Origin: a virus
Taxonomy: Duplodnaviria > Caudoviricetes
DNA length: 64,000 bases
Virus record (IMG/VR): IMGVR_UViG_3300029288_005873
Location: 192,001-256,000 of that record
Reading direction: 5' to 3' (one strand)
The notes beneath the pieces were generated by a model. The model had not been told where the DNA came from. It was given only the letters and a program-made list of their open reading frames with translations, and did no database searches. This document shows positions 5,869 through 47,702 of this stretch, one piece after another. The stretch's first letter is position 1; each line of letters begins with the position of its first letter. A program made the position numbers and the translations under genes.

Positions 5869-6096
5869 TTAGTTAGCCGCTGGCTTCAACTTTCCCTCTG
5901 CGATCTCAAGCACGACCGTGACCTTTCCCCCCGACTCCAAGTGGCGCACGGCCGAAAATCTCCCATTTCCGATCATGTGTACGATCACCCCAGGTTGTGG
6001 AATAGCCTTCCCGCGCCTGTCGAGCGAAAATAGACGCACGACATCTGGAGCTAGGAAGCTGACCTTGATTTCCGACACTCGCTGCTCATTAACCAT
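5869..6096 (-). CDS. hypothetical protein
   Basis: ORF from MVNEQR with AAGGAG RBS, downstream of tRNA-Arg. Confidence 0.55.
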   Translation of the reverse strand: MVNEQRVSEIKVSFLAPDVVRLFSLDRRGKAIPQPGVIVHMIGNGRFSAVRHLESGGKVTVVLEIAEGKLKPAAN

Positions 6097-6117
6097 TGTA
6101 CCGCTCCTTGTTGTGGG

Positions 6118-6191
6118 TGACCACGGCAGGACTCGAACCTGCATGAAAGCCAATTTAGGAAATTGGTGGTCGTCCTTTGACCCACGTGGCC
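6118..6191 (-). tRNA. tRNA-Arg(CCU)
   Basis: GGCCACG/CGTGGTC acceptor, CCAAT-TTCCTAA-ATTGG anticodon arm, GCAGG-TTCGAGT-CCTGC T arm. Confidence 0.85.
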
Positions 6192-6192
6192 G

Positions 6193-6435
6193 TCAATACT
6201 TTCCTGATAGAAGTGCAAAAAGCGACACAAGTTTTGGATCAATGTGCCACTTATCATCGCCCTCCGACCACCATGGCGCAAGAACATCTGAAGCTACAGA
6301 TTTCAAAGATCTCCTAACGCGCCATGCTTTAATTCCAATCTTTTCGGCAATTTCCTTTGTTGTAAAAACCGTCTGTCCGTCTGAACATATATTGCCCAGA
6401 GCTTCAAAAATCTCAGCTATTAGACGCCGTCTCAT
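6193..6435 (-). CDS. possible winged-helix DNA-binding protein
   Basis: FTTKEIAEKIGIKAWRVRRSLK HTH-like segment. Confidence 0.45.
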   Translation of the reverse strand: MRRRLIAEIFEALGNICSDGQTVFTTKEIAEKIGIKAWRVRRSLKSVASDVLAPWWSEGDDKWHIDPKLVSLFALLSGKY

Positions 6436-6521
6436 TCTTCACAATTCCTAATCTTGGGCTTATGTTCAAGGGCTTTACATGCCATCAAATATACATCTCC
6501 GATAGCAAGATCGAATCTAGG

Positions 6522-6746
6522 TTAGGCAACTGGAGCCGCCAAGTTGACTTTCGTACTAGGAAGCCTGATCGACTTTACACCCCCGAATGATTCAATAGCT
6601 TCTACAAACGCAACCAATGCTTCAATCATTGTTGGTTCTCCGTGGTTCCAGAAATCCAGGTTTCCTTCGAGAGTCGATATATTCTCGATATGTGCGTTCC
6701 ATGAATGCTTCTGTACGCCTCCCTCGACGGTCGATCGTCGCTTCAA
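6522..6746 (-). CDS. hypothetical protein
   Basis: 74 aa ORF; frame ambiguous with overlapping 6622..6873. Confidence 0.35.
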   Translation of the reverse strand: MKRRSTVEGGVQKHSWNAHIENISTLEGNLDFWNHGEPTMIEALVAFVEAIESFGGVKSIRLPSTKVNLAAPVA

Positions 6747-6856
6747 ATTCGTCGTTCAGTAATATCTCCTCGGCTAATCTAAGGAATTCTTGATCATGTG
6801 CTTCATCCAATTCATCCGCAATCGCTAACCTACGGGCACGCAGAAACTGTCTCCAT

Positions 6857-7135
6857 CTACGCTTGATTGCCATTTTCGACCTCAGGAGGTTCTGGGGTCG
6901 GCTCTATGCGCTGTGCGTGCCAGACCTGACCTTTTACCTGCGATTTGTACAGGAAATCCCAGCCAAGCTTAAGCTCGACAACCATTGTACCAGAACACCA
7001 TACCTGTAGGCGTCGCACCTTTGTCTCATTATTCCAGAACAAATAGACCCAATAGTCGCCCGGACTACTCGGCCATCCATCGGTCCATTCAACTTTCATG
7101 TTGACTCTCCTCGTCATGTGGAATTTCAGGCTCAT
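6857..7135 (-). CDS. hypothetical protein (WP..PG.YW motif)
   Basis: Resembles adjacent 7089..7343. Confidence 0.55.
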   Translation of the reverse strand: MSLKFHMTRRVNMKVEWTDGWPSSPGDYWVYLFWNNETKVRRLQVWCSGTMVVELKLGWDFLYKSQVKGQVWHAQRIEPTPEPPEVENGNQA

Positions 7136-7343
7136 CTATCGACATGAACCAGAATGGTCGATCAATCTCCCTCTCCCAAATAAAAGCGCCGTTTCTGGCT
7201 ACAGCAATGCCATTGGCACATTGACGAACACGTACCATACCAATTGACCTAGCCATACCAAAACGTGTCTCGTATTCTGTTCTACCGTAGAACCACCACC
7301 ATCCTTCACGATCTGGCCACCTATTCTTAATCCACATCCACAC
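7089..7343 (-). CDS. hypothetical protein (WP..EGWWW motif)
   Basis: Trp-rich, paralog-like to 6857..7135. Confidence 0.55.
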   Translation of the reverse strand: MWMWIKNRWPDREGWWWFYGRTEYETRFGMARSIGMVRVRQCANGIAVARNGAFIWEREIDRPFWFMSIDEPEIPHDEESQHES

Positions 7344-7722
7344 ACTCTAGAAGCTTCGAGGTTGATGATCCTATGGCGCTTTCAGCCAACCGTTCCATCA
7401 TCACCTTGGCTATCTTTTTCTTCTGACGTGTTGACAACGAAAACGTATTCCACGTCTTGTTTGATTCTATACCGACCGCGATAGTATCATTGATCTCAAT
7501 CCACGCTTCGCTTCTACCCTTTACAAGCCTGACACCTCCGTCAAATTCAATCACAGGATAGTCAGCACCACCCCTATGCTGTAGATGTACCTGACGTATT
7601 GGTAACCAGGACACTTGGTCTATGAGCTGGTCTATCTGAGAACGCATGGGTTTTTTTGCAAATACTAAAGCTCCTGCCGTAAAACCAAGGCAGACACAGA
7701 TTGACGCCACCAGGAAAGACAT
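7327..7722 (-). CDS. N-terminally anchored membrane protein
   Basis: TM helix; paralog of 7734..8132 (Q..WLPI, E.DGG.RL). Confidence 0.65.
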   Translation of the reverse strand: MSFLVASICVCLGFTAGALVFAKKPMRSQIDQLIDQVSWLPIRQVHLQHRGGADYPVIEFDGGVRLVKGRSEAWIEINDTIAVGIESNKTWNTFSLSTRQKKKIAKVMMERLAESAIGSSTSKLLECVDVD

Positions 7723-10014: not shown

Positions 10015-10410
10015 CTATGGTTCACATTTTGGACAGTAACGATACATCAAACCCATTCCGGGGTCCTTAAGCTGGCAGCCGCAGGCTGCGCATACCGTCC
10101 GCCCATCCGTGTTCAGGGATTTCAAGTTCTTGTTGGAACTTGATTTTTCGCCAGCAGAAAAAAGAAAGAGCGAGGGAGGATTAGACATATGTCTTGCGGC
10201 ATTCCAATAAGCACCGGTATTGCGACATATGGATATGCCTCTACCATTCTCCAAGACCACAACAATATGACCAGGATTATGTGTATGGTCATGTACCTCA
10301 ACAACAGTCTCATTTTTAATGACTCCTGGAGATGGTCTATACTCCCAATCTAAAGCTTCAGCTGCCGGATTTATGTCCACCACATCCCCAACCTTTGGAA
10401 TGTATGCCAT
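10015..10410 (-). CDS. C-terminal Zn-ribbon (CPKCEP) family protein, copy 4
   Basis: Start re-assigned to MAYIPKVGD; conserved C-terminus. Confidence 0.75.
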   Translation of the reverse strand: MAYIPKVGDVVDINPAAEALDWEYRPSPGVIKNETVVEVHDHTHNPGHIVVVLENGRGISICRNTGAYWNAARHMSNPPSLFLFSAGEKSSSNKNLKSLNTDGRTVCAACGCQLKDPGMGLMYRYCPKCEP

Positions 10411-10424
10411 GATTTTTTCTCCCA

Positions 10425-10982
10425 CTATGGCTCGCACTTTGGGCAATGCTGATATTTTGGACCGAGACCGATAGGGATCTTCAGCGGACCACCGCATTTG
10501 GCGCAGATCGTTGCGCCAAGTTTTGTGTTAGAATCCCTGAGCTCAACAGGACTCAGACCATCGGTCGAAAATACATCTACGCTTTCCAGAAAACGAGGAT
10601 CAAATAGATTGTCGCGCGCCTCTACCTCTCGCTCTGCCATAGCAATAGCACAAGGAAGTTCTTCTTTTGTATACAACCCAGCGTACTTTGCCCACAAAGA
10701 ATTGTGAAACAAAGTACCTTGTACCGTCCATATTGCTGAAATCTTGTGGCTTTTTGCCAATGGGGATAATGGAGCAGGAACTACTTGAACTCGTTCTCCT
10801 GGATTTAGAATCGGCCATAGCCAGATTTTTGGAATATGTAACGGATGATTGTTTGTCAGATCCCACAAGCCCTCGAGAAATACCGTATCATCCCATATCT
10901 CAGTTACCAGATATGGACGAACAGGAGGATGCCCTATCATTGATGCATTCACTAATACTTCCATACCTTTTTGCAGTATCAT
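10425..10982 (-). CDS. C-terminal Zn-ribbon (CPKCEP) family protein, copy 5
   Basis: Ends CAKCGGPLKIPIGLGPKYQHCPKCEP. Confidence 0.75.
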   Translation of the reverse strand: MILQKGMEVLVNASMIGHPPVRPYLVTEIWDDTVFLEGLWDLTNNHPLHIPKIWLWPILNPGERVQVVPAPLSPLAKSHKISAIWTVQGTLFHNSLWAKYAGLYTKEELPCAIAMAEREVEARDNLFDPRFLESVDVFSTDGLSPVELRDSNTKLGATICAKCGGPLKIPIGLGPKYQHCPKCEP

Positions 10983-15286: not shown

Positions 15287-15605
15287 TGAGCCCAGCAGGA
15301 TTCGAACCTGCGACCAACTGGTTAACCTGCCACACTTGCTTTCACAAGCCAACTTTTCGGAGTTGTTGTGGTCTGGACCATATCTTCACCCTCAACATTA
15401 CTTGGTCGGGTGTTCTGCTCATGGCCTCTGAGGACTCCCAAAATATTCTGGGTTGCCTGCGGATTATCCAATCTTTAACATTTTTACTCATAGTGAGTAG
15501 TTAAAGCTCTAAGGACGTTCCCGCATATCGCAGAATTCATTTCATATATTACTATATGAACGCTCCAATCGAAGCCAGTTGCTCTGCCAACTGAGCTATG
15601 GGCCC
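15287..15605 (-). tRNA. tRNA-Lys(UUU), intron-containing (exons 15572-15605 and 15287-15325)
   Basis: GGGCCCA..ACTGG-CTT^TTAA-CCAGT..GCAGG-TTCGAAT-CCTGC-TGGGCTC-A. Confidence 0.93.
15326..15571 (-). ncRNA. group I intron in tRNA-Lys anticodon (34/35)
   Basis: P1 GCUU^C/GGAGC with U.G at the splice site, R CUCAGAGGCCA, S AAGAUAUGGUCC, terminal G. Confidence 0.9.
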
Positions 15606-25737: not shown

Positions 25738-26080
25738 TGGTGGGCCTGTCCGGACTCGAACCGGAAACCCGCGGTTTATGCAAACTATCTACGTGTTTCC
25801 ACGCCGCTTTTCAGCGTTTGTAGTCTGGACTATCCCTTCCCTTTCGGGTCTGCCGTCTAGTCTCTACACCTTCAGGATTTCTCCCGCTTGGCTCGGGATT
25901 GGCATGAGAGTTTCCTCTTTTAGCTTTCCCCGACTTTGACAGAATTCACTAACACACTTGCCTCGGTTGCCCGCACATAATATGTTAGAGTCCCAAGTAG
26001 TGAATCATGCGCCAAAAAAGCGTTTAGATTTCAACTACTTAATCAAGACCGCCGCTCTAACCTAATTGAGCTACAGGCCC
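25738..26080 (-). tRNA. tRNA-Ile2(CAU), intron-containing (exons 26046-26080 and 25738-25780)
   Basis: GGGCCTG/CAGGCCC acceptor with C4-G69 and C5-G68, loop CT^CATAA, CCA; tilS adjacent. Confidence 0.88.
25781..26045 (-). ncRNA. group I intron in tRNA-Ile2 anticodon loop (33/34)
   Basis: R GUAGAGACUA, S GGGAUAGUCC (P7 GACUA/UAGUC), extended P1 ending GGGAC, terminal G. Confidence 0.9.
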
Positions 26081-27257: not shown

Positions 27258-27261
27258 TAGT

Positions 27262-27637
27262 TGGACGTGCCGGAAGTCGAATCCGGGTCCGCAACATCTT
27301 GATCGTGAAGTCATCCACATGCTTGGTTTCCATTTACTATTCCAGCAGGCGGGAAACGCGCCCATACTGAAAAGACCCATTGAGGCATTTTCGGTGGAAG
27401 TCTCAGGGTTTGAGTAGCTTCCTTAGTAGCCTCTCCCTACAATCCCTGTCCGATGACGCCGATCCCCAGAGTCACAGGGCCGGAGCCCGAGGTCAGCGGA
27501 TGCTAGGCAGCTGCCAGCATCTGGTTCGCGTTGTTGTTCGCGTTTGTTGTCTGTCCCAGTTTTTTCATGGCAGCCTGGAACACCTGCCAGCATGCACTCC
27601 AGTCTCTCAATACCACGTCGATACCAAATTCACGCCC
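27262..27637 (-). ncRNA. ssrA: tmRNA, tag ANNNANQMLAAA* (27503-27541)
   Basis: 5' GGGCGTGAA..TCGAC, 3' GGACCCGGATTCGACTTCCGGCACGTCCA, G3.U70 pair, GCATG/CATGT helix, tag ending LAAA. Confidence 0.95.
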
Positions 27638-41715: not shown

Positions 41716-42120
41716 CTACTTCTTCGCCCGCTTCACCCCGTACTTGCTCCTGCTCTGGTTCCGGGGGTTCTTCTCACCACCGTTGCGGACCGTGTCTCCC
41801 GCAGCATCCGTCCCCTTGGCACCACGCACGATGTGATACTTCACACCGGGCAGGTCCTTCACCCTGCCGCCCCTGATCAGCACCGTCGAGTGCTCCTGCA
41901 GGTTGTGCCCGATTCCCGGGATGTACGCGATCACCGTGATCCCGTTCGACAGCCTCACCACCGCCACCTTGCGGTTCGCGGAGTTCGGCTTCTTCGGACC
42001 GACGGTGTACACCCTCAGGCACACACCCTTGCGCTGCGGACATCCCTGAAGCGCTGGCGCCTTGGATTTGTTCGCCAAACGCTTCCTACCTTGCCTCACC
42101 AGCTGGTTGATCGTCGGCAT
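41716..42120 (-). CDS. rpsL: 30S ribosomal protein S12 (uS12), phage-encoded
   Basis: [53 protein letters not shown]; GGAGG RBS. Confidence 0.97.
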
Positions 42121-42442
42121 CTCCGTCCTCCTCTTCCTGAAGCATTGCGTCGATTTCCTCGATTTCATCCTCCGAGACACCATTGTCCAGGAGGATTTTC
42201 CTCATTTCCTCGATACTACACTCCTCGAGCACGATCTCCCTGCGATCACCCTTCTTCGCAAGGATGTGGTCCAGCTCCTTCTCATGCTTCGCCGCCTCGT
42301 GCCGCAGACGGTTGACGCACGAAAGAAGCTTCTCGTTCTTCACGTGAGCCTTCTTCAGAAGATCCATCATCTCCTCGGCCATCGATGATACCGTTGATAC
42401 CGCATCCAGACGCTCCGTGACCGAACTCGAATTCGAACCCAT
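42086..42442 (-). CDS. coiled-coil acidic protein overlapping the rpsL start
   Basis: 118 aa ORF, AAGGAG RBS, directly after twister 1. Confidence 0.65.
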
Positions 42443-42481
42443 CGCTCATCTCCTTATCGGGCTGTAATCCTCACGTCCCTT

Positions 42482-42545
42482 TCCATCCCTCTGCGTTTTC
42501 ACGGGCTTGGGACCGTCGTCCCTTTGGGACGGCCGCATTGATGGA
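42482..42545 (-). ncRNA. twister ribozyme (type P1), copy 1
   Basis: UCCAU-CAA-UGCG-GC-CGUCCC/GGGACG-ACGG-UCCCAAGC-CCGU-GAAAA-CGCA-GAGGG-AUGGA. Confidence 0.9.
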
Positions 42546-42790
42546 GCCCGCCTAGCGCCTGGATGCGCATCGGCGGGCGGCACGGATATGTGCCTTGTGC
42601 GCTCCCCAATTGTATGATCCGCATGTCGGGGAATGTCTTCCTCTCGCTTAGCGGGGAAGCTCTGTCCCATGCGGACCGCCCCATGTAGACTGTCCGCTAG
42701 CTGGGGCGCAAATGCCAGCGGACCAAGTATGCTCAAATAGTGACGGGAATCTCATTCCCTCATCCCTTCTGATGCTGTAGCTATCAGCAC
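42546..42790 (-). ncRNA. candidate large pseudoknotted RNA ending at twister 1
   Basis: Intergenic; at least six stems and two loop-to-downstream complementarities (CGCCCCA/UGGGGCG, UCCCC/GGGGA). Confidence 0.5.
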
Positions 42791-42801
42791 CTATTTTTTC
42801 G

Positions 42802-43224
42802 TTAGTTCATCTTGGCGTCCATGGCGGCAACAACATCTGCCGCCATCTCCTCTACCGCCTTGTCGATCCCCATCTCATCGATCATCTCTTGGGCGCTGTC
42901 AGACAGACACATGACATTGACACCCTCCGGCACTAGGTCCAGGTCCTCCTCAGTGAAGAACCCAGCCTCGACCTTGGCGCGGTTCGGAGAGGCTAGGACC
43001 AAGTCCCTGTTGGGCATCTCCACCAGAATGCCGTCGTCCATCAGCTCCACAACCGCATACAGCATCTGTGACCGTCCGAGATCGTCCGAGCACATGTCGC
43101 AGAGCACCTCGAACGAGAAAGGCGCTTTCCTGCCCTCCACCAATCCGAACAGGAAAGCCTCCAGAACCTGGCTCCTCATTGTCTGATACCCGAATATCGC
43201 CTCTTCCGTCCTGTAAATCTTCAT
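42802..43224 (-). CDS. hypothetical protein (possible winged helix)
   Basis: 140 aa ORF, ATGA overlap. Confidence 0.6.
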   Translation of the reverse strand: MKIYRTEEAIFGYQTMRSQVLEAFLFGLVEGRKAPFSFEVLCDMCSDDLGRSQMLYAVVELMDDGILVEMPNRDLVLASPNRAKVEAGFFTEEDLDLVPEGVNVMCLSDSAQEMIDEMGIDKAVEEMAADVVAAMDAKMN

Positions 43225-44284: not shown

Positions 44285-44349
44285 CCCCACCCCTCCGCAT
44301 TTGCACGGGCTTGGGACCGTCGTCCCGAAGGGACGGCTGCGTTATGGGA
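44285..44349 (-). ncRNA. twister ribozyme (type P1), copy 2
   Basis: UCCCA-UAA-CGCA-GC-CGUCCC/GGGACG-ACGG-UCCCAAGC-CCGU-GCAAA-UGCG-GAGGGG-UGGGG. Confidence 0.92.
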
Positions 44350-44417
44350 GGGGCGCGAGGCGCCCCTTTATGTAGGACCTCCGGTCCTTGGTAGGGGAGT
44401 TGTAGAGCTTCTAGCTC

Positions 44418-44988: not shown

Positions 44989-45086
44989 TGGAGGGGTTGA
45001 GTATCAGAGCCCCCTCCGGGCTCCGGGGTTGGGCCAGGCTATGCGCCCCCTTCCAACCACTGGCGGCGTCCCGCCAGATGAGATGT

Positions 45087-45266
45087 CTATCGCGTGATTC
45101 CCATCAACTGCTCGGCCTTCCTCGTGTTCCTGGTCCTGTAGTGGAGGGGGCGGCATTTATTGATGTCCCCAGCAGCCCTCCTACGGCTTGGCGGACAGAT
45201 CTCCACCTCCACCGTTTGCCCATCAATCACCTCGATGCGGACATTCTTGGCTTTCATCGCCTTCAT
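45087..45266 (-). CDS. small basic protein (59 aa, below ORF-track cutoff)
   Basis: MKAMKAKNVRIEVIDGQTVEVEICPP..; first ORF after promoter-like motif copy 2. Confidence 0.5.
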   Translation of the reverse strand: MKAMKAKNVRIEVIDGQTVEVEICPPSRRRAAGDINKCRPLHYRTRNTRKAEQLMGITR

Positions 45267-47030: not shown

Positions 47031-47702
47031 CTACTTGCGGTTGAACTCCTCGTAGTTCTTGAGCTGGGGGTCGTTGTCCTCGCCCCACCGCTGGTTCAGA
47101 CCCCGCTCCAGGAACAACTCCTCCTGGAGATGCGCCCATTCGATCGCCTTGGTGGCATTAGAGATGCTCGCTCTTACCAAGGCGGTACCGATTTCGTCAC
47201 TATCCCAGCACTCGTCGATGCTGGAACAGGAGCCGCGCCCCACCTTCGGGTCCAACCTGATGGCTTCCACCAGAGCGGGCATGTTGACCGCAGCTTTCCA
47301 GGCGGTCAGCGCCGCGCAGTCAACCGTCCGCTGCCACAGGCACTCATCGCACTTGGCGCACTTCGCGCAGGGGTGTACTACTTGCTTCACCTCGCGGGTC
47401 GCGAACCAACCCGCATCCGGGTTGTGGGTCTCCTTCCGGAACTCGGAGAGGTCGGCAGTGTAGCCACCAGAGCAGCGCAGGCACTGACTCCACCACGCGC
47501 CATTCTGCTGAACCTTCCAGCCACGGATGACGACCTGGTTCTTCAGGGTCGGATGAACCTCAGGAGCGCCACACGTCGGACACTCCATCGGCGTACCCTG
47601 AACGTGGAACCGCTCGGTCTGGCTTACACTGCCGCACATGCAGGGAAGCGCCCAGGAGGGACGCGCTACGCCCAGCAGACGACCGCACTTTGCGCACCGC
47701 AT
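47031..47702 (-). CDS. Cys-rich multi-zinc-finger protein
   Basis: Several CxxC pairs, AAGGAGG RBS. Confidence 0.65.
   Translation of the reverse strand: MRCAKCGRLLGVARPSWALPCMCGSVSQTERFHVQGTPMECPTCGAPEVHPTLKNQVVIRGWKVQQNGAWWSQCLRCSGGYTADLSEFRKETHNPDAGWFATREVKQVVHPCAKCAKCDECLWQRTVDCAALTAWKAAVNMPALVEAIRLDPKVGRGSCSSIDECWDSDEIGTALVRASISNATKAIEWAHLQEELFLERGLNQRWGEDNDPQLKNYEEFNRK

Follow-up and report, generated by a model that had tools for sequence, protein, structure and literature searches.

A pseudoknotted non-coding RNA with two similar modules directly precedes a twister-P1 ribozyme in a phage genome

Introduction

Operons of phages and prophages punctuated by self-cleaving ribozymes are known from hammerhead and twister clusters (Perreault et al. 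2011, PMC3088659; review PMC6765202), and it has been proposed that such ribozymes of phages and bacteria divide polycistronic mRNAs into segments that differ in stability (PMC6765202). The roles of bacterial and phage self-cleaving ribozymes are nevertheless largely unknown, and sites adjoining them have yielded new RNA classes. The locus described here resembles these operons in that several ribozymes lie in the intergenic gaps of co-oriented phage genes: three twister-P1 ribozymes are found within 2.5 kb, and three more in a distantly related phage contig (L021). It differs from them in what precedes the ribozyme. Described spacers are short, whereas here a pseudoknotted structure of ~250 nt is placed between the upstream gene and the twister.

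Three other kinds of RNA offer points of comparison. Both tmRNA (PK2-PK4) and the tobacco mosaic virus 3′ UTR, in its upstream pseudoknot domain, contain strings of H-type pseudoknots. Like these, the RNA of this locus has consecutive, similar H-type pseudoknots near a 3′ end in a translation-related setting, a likeness of architecture. Unlike tmRNA, it has neither a tag reading frame nor sequence similarity to the tmRNA of the phage itself or of the related phage L002, and it is devoid of tRNA-like acceptor/T-arm geometry because its CCA-like tail emerges at the junction of its last two hairpins (S5 and S6). Small bacterial RNAs derived from 3′ UTRs are freed from the mRNA by an endonuclease and share its 3′ end. 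The present RNA is similar to them in lying directly after a stop codon, in having no promoter of its own and in ending with a stable 3′ hairpin, and its A-rich linker is a candidate RNase E-type entry site. In contrast to those small RNAs, its 3′ end would be made by a ribozyme instead of an intrinsic terminator, it is far larger and pseudoknotted, and its release would be a presumptive step. Finally, GOLLD and ROOL are likewise structured ncRNAs of phage genomes found near tRNA and tmRNA genes; the RNA is two to three times smaller than these, has no Rfam match and has one twin in place of a family of homologs.

The locus is a compact test case of ~310 nt, in which a twister appears to make the 3′ end of a duplicated pseudoknot RNA, within a phage island where a protein of the ribosomal decoding centre is encoded as well. 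Ribozyme-punctuated phage operons have been known since 2011; the locus would work in the same manner, its trailer being unusually ornate.

Results

Genomic setting

The window, a stretch of 64,000 nt, corresponds to bases 192001-256000 of a 441,904-bp IMG/VR phage record. Between 38.4 and 49.6 kb of the window lies an island with a GC content of 57-66%, against 44% for the genome, and a gap of 359 nt between two ORFs of this island (42443-42801, minus strand) holds the ~250-nt RNA and the ribozyme that follows it, twister 1. Positions in the RNA are counted from window position 42790, so that position p is 42791-p. The features of the locus are the following.

42802..43224, minus strand: upstream ORF P0001 (140 aa, from the ORF list and its translation), with its stop codon 11 nt before the RNA
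42791..42801, minus strand: A-rich linker CGAAAAAAUAG between the P0001 stop and the RNA, unpaired in folds
42731..42775, minus strand: long irregular 5′ hairpin with a GGGAAU-GAG-AUUCCC tip (RNA 16-60), from the minimum free energy (MFE) fold and pair probabilities
42677..42723, minus strand: pseudoknot module A (RNA 68-114), with the 10-bp stem S3 pairing 42714-42723 with 42692-42701
42702-42708 with 42677-42683, minus strand: pseudoknot of module A, CGCCCCA with UGGGGCG, with no spacer to the 3′ strand of the stem and a third loop of 8 nt
42602..42676, minus strand: pseudoknot module B, duplicate of A (RNA 115-189), with the 9-bp stem S4 pairing 42668-42676 with 42617-42625
42626-42633 with 42602-42609, minus strand: pseudoknot of module B, UUCCCCGA with UUGGGGAG, with a third loop of 7 nt
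42637-42659, minus strand: hairpin inserted in module B
42579..42594, minus strand: hairpin S5, GGCAC-AUAUCC-GUGCC (RNA 197-212), pairing probability 1.0, directly adjoining S6
42546..42578, minus strand: hairpin S6, GCCCGCC...GGCGGGC with an inner GCGC/GCGC hairpin (RNA 213-245), pairing probability 1.0, a GC clamp just 5′ of the twister
42540..42545, minus strand: 3′ tail UCCAUC, whose last five bases are the twister 5′ side up to the predicted cut, CCAU being the P1 strand
42483..42544, minus strand: twister-P1 ribozyme (twister 1), Rfam RF03160 match
42086..42442, minus strand: downstream ORF P0002 (118 aa), starting 40 nt past twister 1
41716-42120: phage uS12 gene, next after P0002
44287-44348 and 44924-44988: two further twister-P1 ribozymes (Rfam)

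Genes connected with translation are abundant around the RNA (uS12, a tRNA-like element, a tmRNA and many tRNAs). Remote homologs of P0001, with 29-45% identity, are encoded on other phage contigs; no copy of the RNA is found downstream of them, and a small gene stands there instead. A 59-aa ORF located before the third twister of our phage (45087-45266; matched part 45105-45242) is homologous to the small gene directly following the P0001 homologs in contigs L010 and L012, and its 91-aa neighbour has a homolog at 47043-47273. It follows that the island represents a rearranged form of a gene block common to GC-rich phages. P0001 itself gave no Pfam or PHROG match. Its single-sequence fold reached a pLDDT of 40; an alignment-based model (11 sequences, pLDDT 84) displays a helix-helix-helix-strand-strand core whose best PDB matches, all weak (E 0.06-0.2), are winged-helix DNA-binding regulators (MarR, GntR, DtxR).

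Fold of the RNA

A first, sequence-only reading had proposed a pseudoknotted RNA of ~245 nt on the minus strand, and its stems are indeed all present in the sequence. The minus strand folds with an MFE of -104.4 kcal/mol and a z-score of -4.0, which none of 200 dinucleotide shuffles equalled, whereas the plus strand reaches a z-score of only -1.9. The value of -4.0 is the most extreme of its neighbourhood, yet 6 of 45 windows of the same size in the GC-rich island have z-scores below -3.7, so that by itself it is supportive and not decisive. These neighbouring windows favour an interpretation that we hold to be rather unlikely: a non-functional GC-rich spacer, situated at the recombination joint of a P0001 module and a P0002-uS12 module, would fold well owing to its GC-richness and internal repetition, with S6 and the twister as its only functional parts. 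The strand-specificity of the fold argues against such a spacer, as does the general rarity of non-coding stretches this long in phage genomes, which are densely packed.

Pairing probabilities were taken from the unconstrained ensemble, and pseudoknots were defined as second-layer helices with the nested pairs masked. Six of the stems listed earlier pair with probabilities of 0.6-1.0: besides S5 and S6, these are S2 (GGGAAU/AUUCCC, 32-37/41-46; 0.6-0.8), S3 (GUCCGCUGGC/GCUAGCGGAC, 68-77/90-99; 0.97), S4 (GUCCGCAUG/CAUGCGGAU, 115-123/166-174; 0.88) and the hairpin CUUCC..GGAAG inside S4 (132-154; 0.95). The remaining one, CUGAU/AUCAG (4-8/18-22, 42769-42787), has a probability of ~0.05 and is outcompeted by the longer hairpin 16-60. 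The two pseudoknots that had been proposed were both recovered as the top second-layer helices. The first, CGCCCCA/UGGGGCG (83-89/108-114), has a duplex energy of -13.2 kcal/mol; the second, originally read as UCCCC/GGGGA, extends to 8 bp (UUCCCCGA/UUGGGGAG, 158-165/182-189) with -10.9 kcal/mol. A 7-bp stem combined with a 7-mer pseudoknot is found at ~70 distinct places (108 raw hits, many of them nested) in 884 kb of this genome, which corresponds to a chance rate of about 2% per 250 nt, or ~1 per 12 kb.

We regard the segment 42540-42790 as a real non-coding, strand-specific structured RNA. No sigma-70-like promoter and no defined 5′ processing site were found for it. The motif GAAAAAATAG was considered as a promoter and rejected, since it is scattered through the coding sequence of the genome. 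The A-rich linker at 42791..42801 is a possible entry site for an endonuclease. On the plus strand, the first hairpin of the sequence-only reading together with a T-run (42773-42800) scores as an intrinsic terminator, which could halt antisense transcription into the RNA.

Duplicated pseudoknot modules

The two pseudoknots belong to modules that resemble each other throughout. Both begin with GGUCCGC, end with UGGGG and contain a linker of 7-8 nt that includes UACA; in both, the C-rich loop strand abuts the 3′ strand of the stem (GCGGAC or GCGGAU). The local similarity score of A against B is 32, as compared with 16.9 +/- 3.4 for shuffled sequences, none of 2000 shuffles being as good. When the modules are aligned by structure, three pairs show two-sided compensatory differences (U74-A93/A121-U168, G75-U92/U122-A167 and G84-C113/U159-A188), two show one-sided compatible differences, and none is disruptive. 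A pattern written from both modules was found nowhere else in this genome. As read from the sequence, the core of the RNA consists of one H-type pseudoknot module duplicated in tandem, a new observation and the strongest internal evidence that the structure goes beyond chance. Duplication with two-layer pairing kept through three compensatory differences is not expected of junk and stands against the spacer.

A repeated GGUCCGC...GCGGAY...UACA.UGGGG, in which the stem sequence is kept exactly and pairing is maintained by compensation, is expected of a repeated recognition site. It could thus belong to a trans-acting ncRNA, scaffold or decoy, the released pair of modules binding a phage or host protein or the translation apparatus and the twister merely making the 3′ end. 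We consider this unlikely, though deserving attention, and it draws further support from the translation-gene-rich neighbourhood (uS12, tRNA-like element, tmRNA, tRNAs). The RNA shows no GNRA tetraloops or other recognisable tertiary motifs and has no promoter of its own, which argues in the opposite direction; there are also no homologs that would reveal selection on its loops.

Twister 1 and the 3′ end of the RNA

Twister 1 matches RF03160 over the whole model (1-68 of 68) with 65.1 bits and an E value of 4.4e-14, slightly below the curated cut-off (gathering score 67.2) and far beyond chance. In the Rfam alignment all its core nucleotides are present (AA at the cut, GC.GCC, GGUCCCAAGCCCG and GAGGG), as are stems P1, P2 and P4 and the variable hairpin. 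An alignment of 15 twisters, taken from this phage and others, shows an invariant core and covariation in P1 and in the P3/variable hairpin. The ribozyme is predicted to cut at C42540|A42539. The idea that twister 1 sets the 3′ end of the RNA is thus supported by the adjoining RF03160 match, but the end itself has to be moved: the predicted cut places it at 42540, 6 nt past the position first assigned (42546). From twister chemistry, the upstream product is expected to end in a 2′,3′-cyclic phosphate.

No more than three twisters were found in the 442-kb genome. They lie together within 2.5 kb, each followed by a start codon 25-45 nt downstream. In this phage and its distant relative L021 taken together, five of six twisters follow a stable, mostly GC-rich hairpin at a distance of 0-1 nt. 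The hairpins are located as follows.

42546-42578, 44349-44368 and ~44990-45020: hairpins at the twisters of this phage
just upstream of 7265, 10257 and 10936 of L021: hairpins at the twisters of the distant relative

S6 thus belongs to a hairpin-plus-twister design that recurs. Its occurrence in two distantly related phages suggests a conserved unit capping the upstream cleavage product. The other five twisters have a single upstream hairpin only, so that the structure before twister 1 is much more extensive; this counts in favour of a trans-acting RNA. The recurrence of the hairpin fits the more ordinary role of a ribozyme-terminated 3′ trailer.

A switch that controls the twister was considered as well. 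Pseudoknot B, stabilised by a ligand or protein, would free the twister, whose conserved AAUGCGGCC would otherwise be blocked by the 5′ strand of S4, and the ratio of joined to separated messages would be set in this way. The nested-pair ensemble of the 312-nt sequence is compatible with such an allosteric mechanism, the twister 5′ strand pairing with S4 (114-121) at ~0.85 and the twister fold reaching 0.14, and riboswitches with tandem aptamer-like modules are known. However, the complementarity between S4 and the twister has a z-score of -1.0, with 14% of shuffled upstream sequences as good, and nothing similar was seen at the other five twisters. The two pseudoknots (-13 and -11 kcal/mol) together with the tertiary pairs of the twister favour the native fold, transcription reaches the twister only after S4 has been completed, and no riboswitch family matches the RNA. 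The anti-twister pairing of S4 was accordingly rejected as not above shuffles, the riboswitch-type role proposed earlier is not borne out in that form, and we judge an allosteric switch improbable.

Coding potential

Two open frames are present on the minus strand, of 96 aa (42446-42736) and 61 aa (42499-42684). Both frames traverse the twister. In the only other copy of the locus, on contig L009 (see below), a 1-nt insertion cuts one frame short and joins the other to a different N-terminus; since this indel shifts both frames, the protein frame 42446-42736 is not conserved, in keeping with an RNA. The 96-aa frame starts with TTG and has no apparent Shine-Dalgarno sequence, and both products have the low-complexity composition, rich in Arg, Pro and Gly, that is to be expected when GC-rich non-coding sequence is translated. 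A protein-coding role is scarcely credible on these grounds. The stretch has no similarity to the small gene that follows the P0001 homologs in other phages, and the notion that the RNA is a decayed copy of this gene was rejected for that reason.

Comparison with known RNA families

At the gathering score, Rfam 15 assigned no family to the 250-nt RNA. At E <= 10, the 270-nt stretch gave two chance-level matches, one of them on the opposite strand: CRISPR-DR23, with 18 bits against a threshold of 45, and a human lncRNA model without structure. The RNA can accordingly still be called an orphan, as it was at first: nothing in Rfam 15 goes beyond chance level, riboswitch models included. Its structure is unlike any described Rfam family and is known from two near-identical genomes only.

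A degenerate tmRNA was also considered and rejected, as neither Rfam RF00023 nor ARAGORN gave a match at the RNA; no tRNA was called there by Rfam or ARAGORN either. The phage's own tmRNA is located at 27259-27637 (Rfam, ARAGORN), and BLAST of the RNA against this tmRNA and that of L002 returned only chance words of 7-12 nt.

Self-cleaving ribozymes cluster with one another in the vicinity of phage genes, and this clustering has led to new classes (PMC6765202). A pseudoknotted RNA within a cluster of three twisters might, by analogy, be a new self-cleaving or otherwise catalytic RNA found by its position, like pistol, hatchet and twister-sister. We regard this as highly improbable. The RNA, with its 250 nt, exceeds the small self-cleaving classes several-fold in size, and hammerhead, HDV, pistol, hatchet and twister-sister models gave no match in it at E <= 10. 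As read from the sequence, the hairpin of module B comes before the pseudoknot strand, opposite to the order in HDV, and the arrangement of the RNA's elements is unlike the nested double pseudoknot of HDV. The original suggestion of a new ribozyme, riboswitch or scaffold is not supported as worded, there being no covariation from independent homologs.

Relatives of the locus

The only other copy of the RNA was found on Logan contig L009 (2177 bp, an independent assembly), with the same gene order and the same arrangement of RNA and twister. The gap is 99.2% identical, with three differences in 359 nt. Two of these fall inside the RNA, both at unpaired positions (linker position 64, and the 1-nt insertion, in the inner loop of S6), which counts against a mere spacer. 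The parts of the contig have diverged to different extents.

129-aa gene: nucleotide identity 80%, synonymous divergence 0.38
P0001: nucleotide identity 97.9%, synonymous divergence 0.066
twister 1: nucleotide identity 100%
P0002: nucleotide identity 88.5%, synonymous divergence 0.32

The simplest reading of this pattern is a recently exchanged mosaic block. As the synonymous sites of P0001 are also nearly unchanged, exchange explains the identity of the twin as well as purifying selection does; the 99.2% identity was dropped as proof of such selection in view of the synonymous divergence of 0.066 in P0001, compared with 0.32-0.38 in the flanking genes. For the same reason the twin provides no covariation. 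It does establish the element as real and as shared; the only other sample known to contain it is ERR7015388.

Among 50,697 GenBank phages, a BLAST search with the gap matched the twister part alone. A covariance model of the RNA (R1: 252 positions, 62 pairs) found only the RNA itself over the 442-kb genome, as did nhmmer and BLAST, and R1 detected no relative in 34 fetched loci, which included six uS12 loci, five P0001-homolog loci, L021-L024, six genome_contigs pattern hits and ten twister loci. Seven exact-pattern scans of viral, metagenome and genome collections revealed no relative either: the RNA-based scans gave 0 hits in viral_contigs (three scans) and in metagenome_contigs (two scans), and 6 chance hits to GC-rich bacteria in genome_contigs. 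Searches with the flanking proteins brought up the twin L009 alone.

At the equivalent place, relatives of uS12 have ordinary promoter or terminator regions or, in L002, a tmRNA. The regions upstream of uS12 in L003, L004 and L006, examined as possible analogues, were set aside as ordinary promoter plus terminator regions. Ten further twister loci from other phages had nothing comparable upstream, and long non-coding stretches near twisters in L021, L026 and L033 were likewise rejected as analogues, with z-scores of -0.6 to -1.7, similar to shuffles, and no alignment with the RNA. Because relatives of both P0001 and uS12 lack the RNA, the RNA and twister 1 must lie at a joint of two modules of different ancestry. 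This is exactly where a non-functional spacer would be found, and the two near-identical copies, explicable by recent block exchange, agree with such a spacer as well. The absence of the RNA beside P0001 and uS12 homologs in other phages similarly weakens the case for a trans-acting RNA.

Discussion

The reading that we favour, to which we would grant slightly less than an even chance, is that the RNA is a structured 3′ trailer terminated by a ribozyme, which may in addition be set free as a stable ncRNA. It builds on the hairpins that end before five of six twisters and on the role proposed for such ribozymes (PMC6765202). The RNA domain would be carried on a polycistronic transcript with the 75-aa, 129-aa and P0001 genes and would fold co-transcriptionally into five units: a long 5′ hairpin, two tandem H-type pseudoknots and two GC-rich hairpins. 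The twister-P1 would then cut itself between C42540 and A42539. The upstream product would end in S6 and a 6-nt tail with a cyclic phosphate, and the downstream product would be the P0002-uS12 message, which would start with a 5′-OH and the folded ribozyme, 40 nt ahead of the P0002 start codon. The structured domain would serve as an exonuclease-resistant 3′ trailer with a ribozyme-defined end, and a further cut in the A-rich linker past the P0001 stop may yield a discrete, stable ncRNA of ~250 nt. We infer in vivo cleavage, protection from nucleases, release on the 5′ side and any function in trans from the features of the locus.

Several observations made above converge on a ribozyme-terminated trailer: the position of a twister-P1 directly 3′ of the domain, in a group of three twisters within 2.5 kb that each precede a start codon; the recurrence of the S6-type hairpin; the strand-specific fold (z -4.0 vs -1.9), with both pseudoknots and tandem modules whose differences preserve pairing; the non-coding character of the stretch, whose ORFs cross the ribozyme and have their frames swapped by the indel of the twin; and the twin itself, in which the arrangement is the same and both changes in the RNA are unpaired. 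Against it stand the windows of the island with similar z-scores (6 of 45), the lack of a promoter or defined 5′ processing site, the lack of independent homologs and hence of covariation for the fold, and the equally good explanation of the twin's identity by recent block exchange. A trailer also accounts poorly for the size of the domain. The other five twisters need a single upstream hairpin only, and the ~200 nt of extra structure found here exceed what end protection requires, which points to a further function.

These ~200 nt of duplicated pseudoknots, beyond the need of the other twisters, keep a trans-acting scaffold or decoy under consideration. It is conceivable, though we would not expect it, that this RNA represents a new class of tandem-pseudoknot phage ncRNAs with ribozyme-made 3′ ends, of which it would be the first known member, and that it acts in trans or, on sensing a ligand or protein, sets the extent to which twister cleavage uncouples the two messages. 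If it were stable and trans-acting, phages would use ribozymes to mature ncRNAs, and their tampering with translation would have an RNA component; the RNA and the uS12 encoded just downstream might, for instance, both act on the host translation apparatus. If instead the RNA is a mere protective trailer, it offers a reusable natural design of hairpin, ribozyme and short leader that insulates cistrons. Since only two near-identical copies are known, nothing can yet be drawn from comparative analysis and the value of the locus is limited for now.

The tmRNA of L002, located at the place equivalent to that of the RNA, is one more point in favour of a trans-acting RNA. L002 is a 193-kb phage whose uS12 is the closest relative found (71% identity), and its tmRNA (L002:3146-3487) lies directly upstream of a small gene and uS12, in the position held in the window by the orphan RNA and the twister. 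In our phage, matches to group I introns occur on the minus strand among the tRNA genes and the tmRNA, at 15356-15581 and 25802-26012; one of them scores 56.7 bits, above the Rfam gathering score, and the second 33.9 bits, below threshold.

The distant relative L021, a 55-kb contig of ~64% GC, encodes a P0001 homolog, bL12, an AAA_33 kinase and tRNAs together with its three twister-P1 ribozymes. Its long non-coding leaders (6043-6901, 7331-7651 and 10318-10557) follow the twisters instead of preceding them. Of these leaders, two are clear paralogs, sharing CACCUGGGACGAMCCCAGCA, ACAACUGAAUAGC, GUACGUGG..CCACGCUAAUC and CCGAUAGG..AGGAGAGAG, and their ACGAA-loop hairpin covaries in a third copy located before bL12. 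The L021 leaders look like a separate, unnamed family of leader RNAs.
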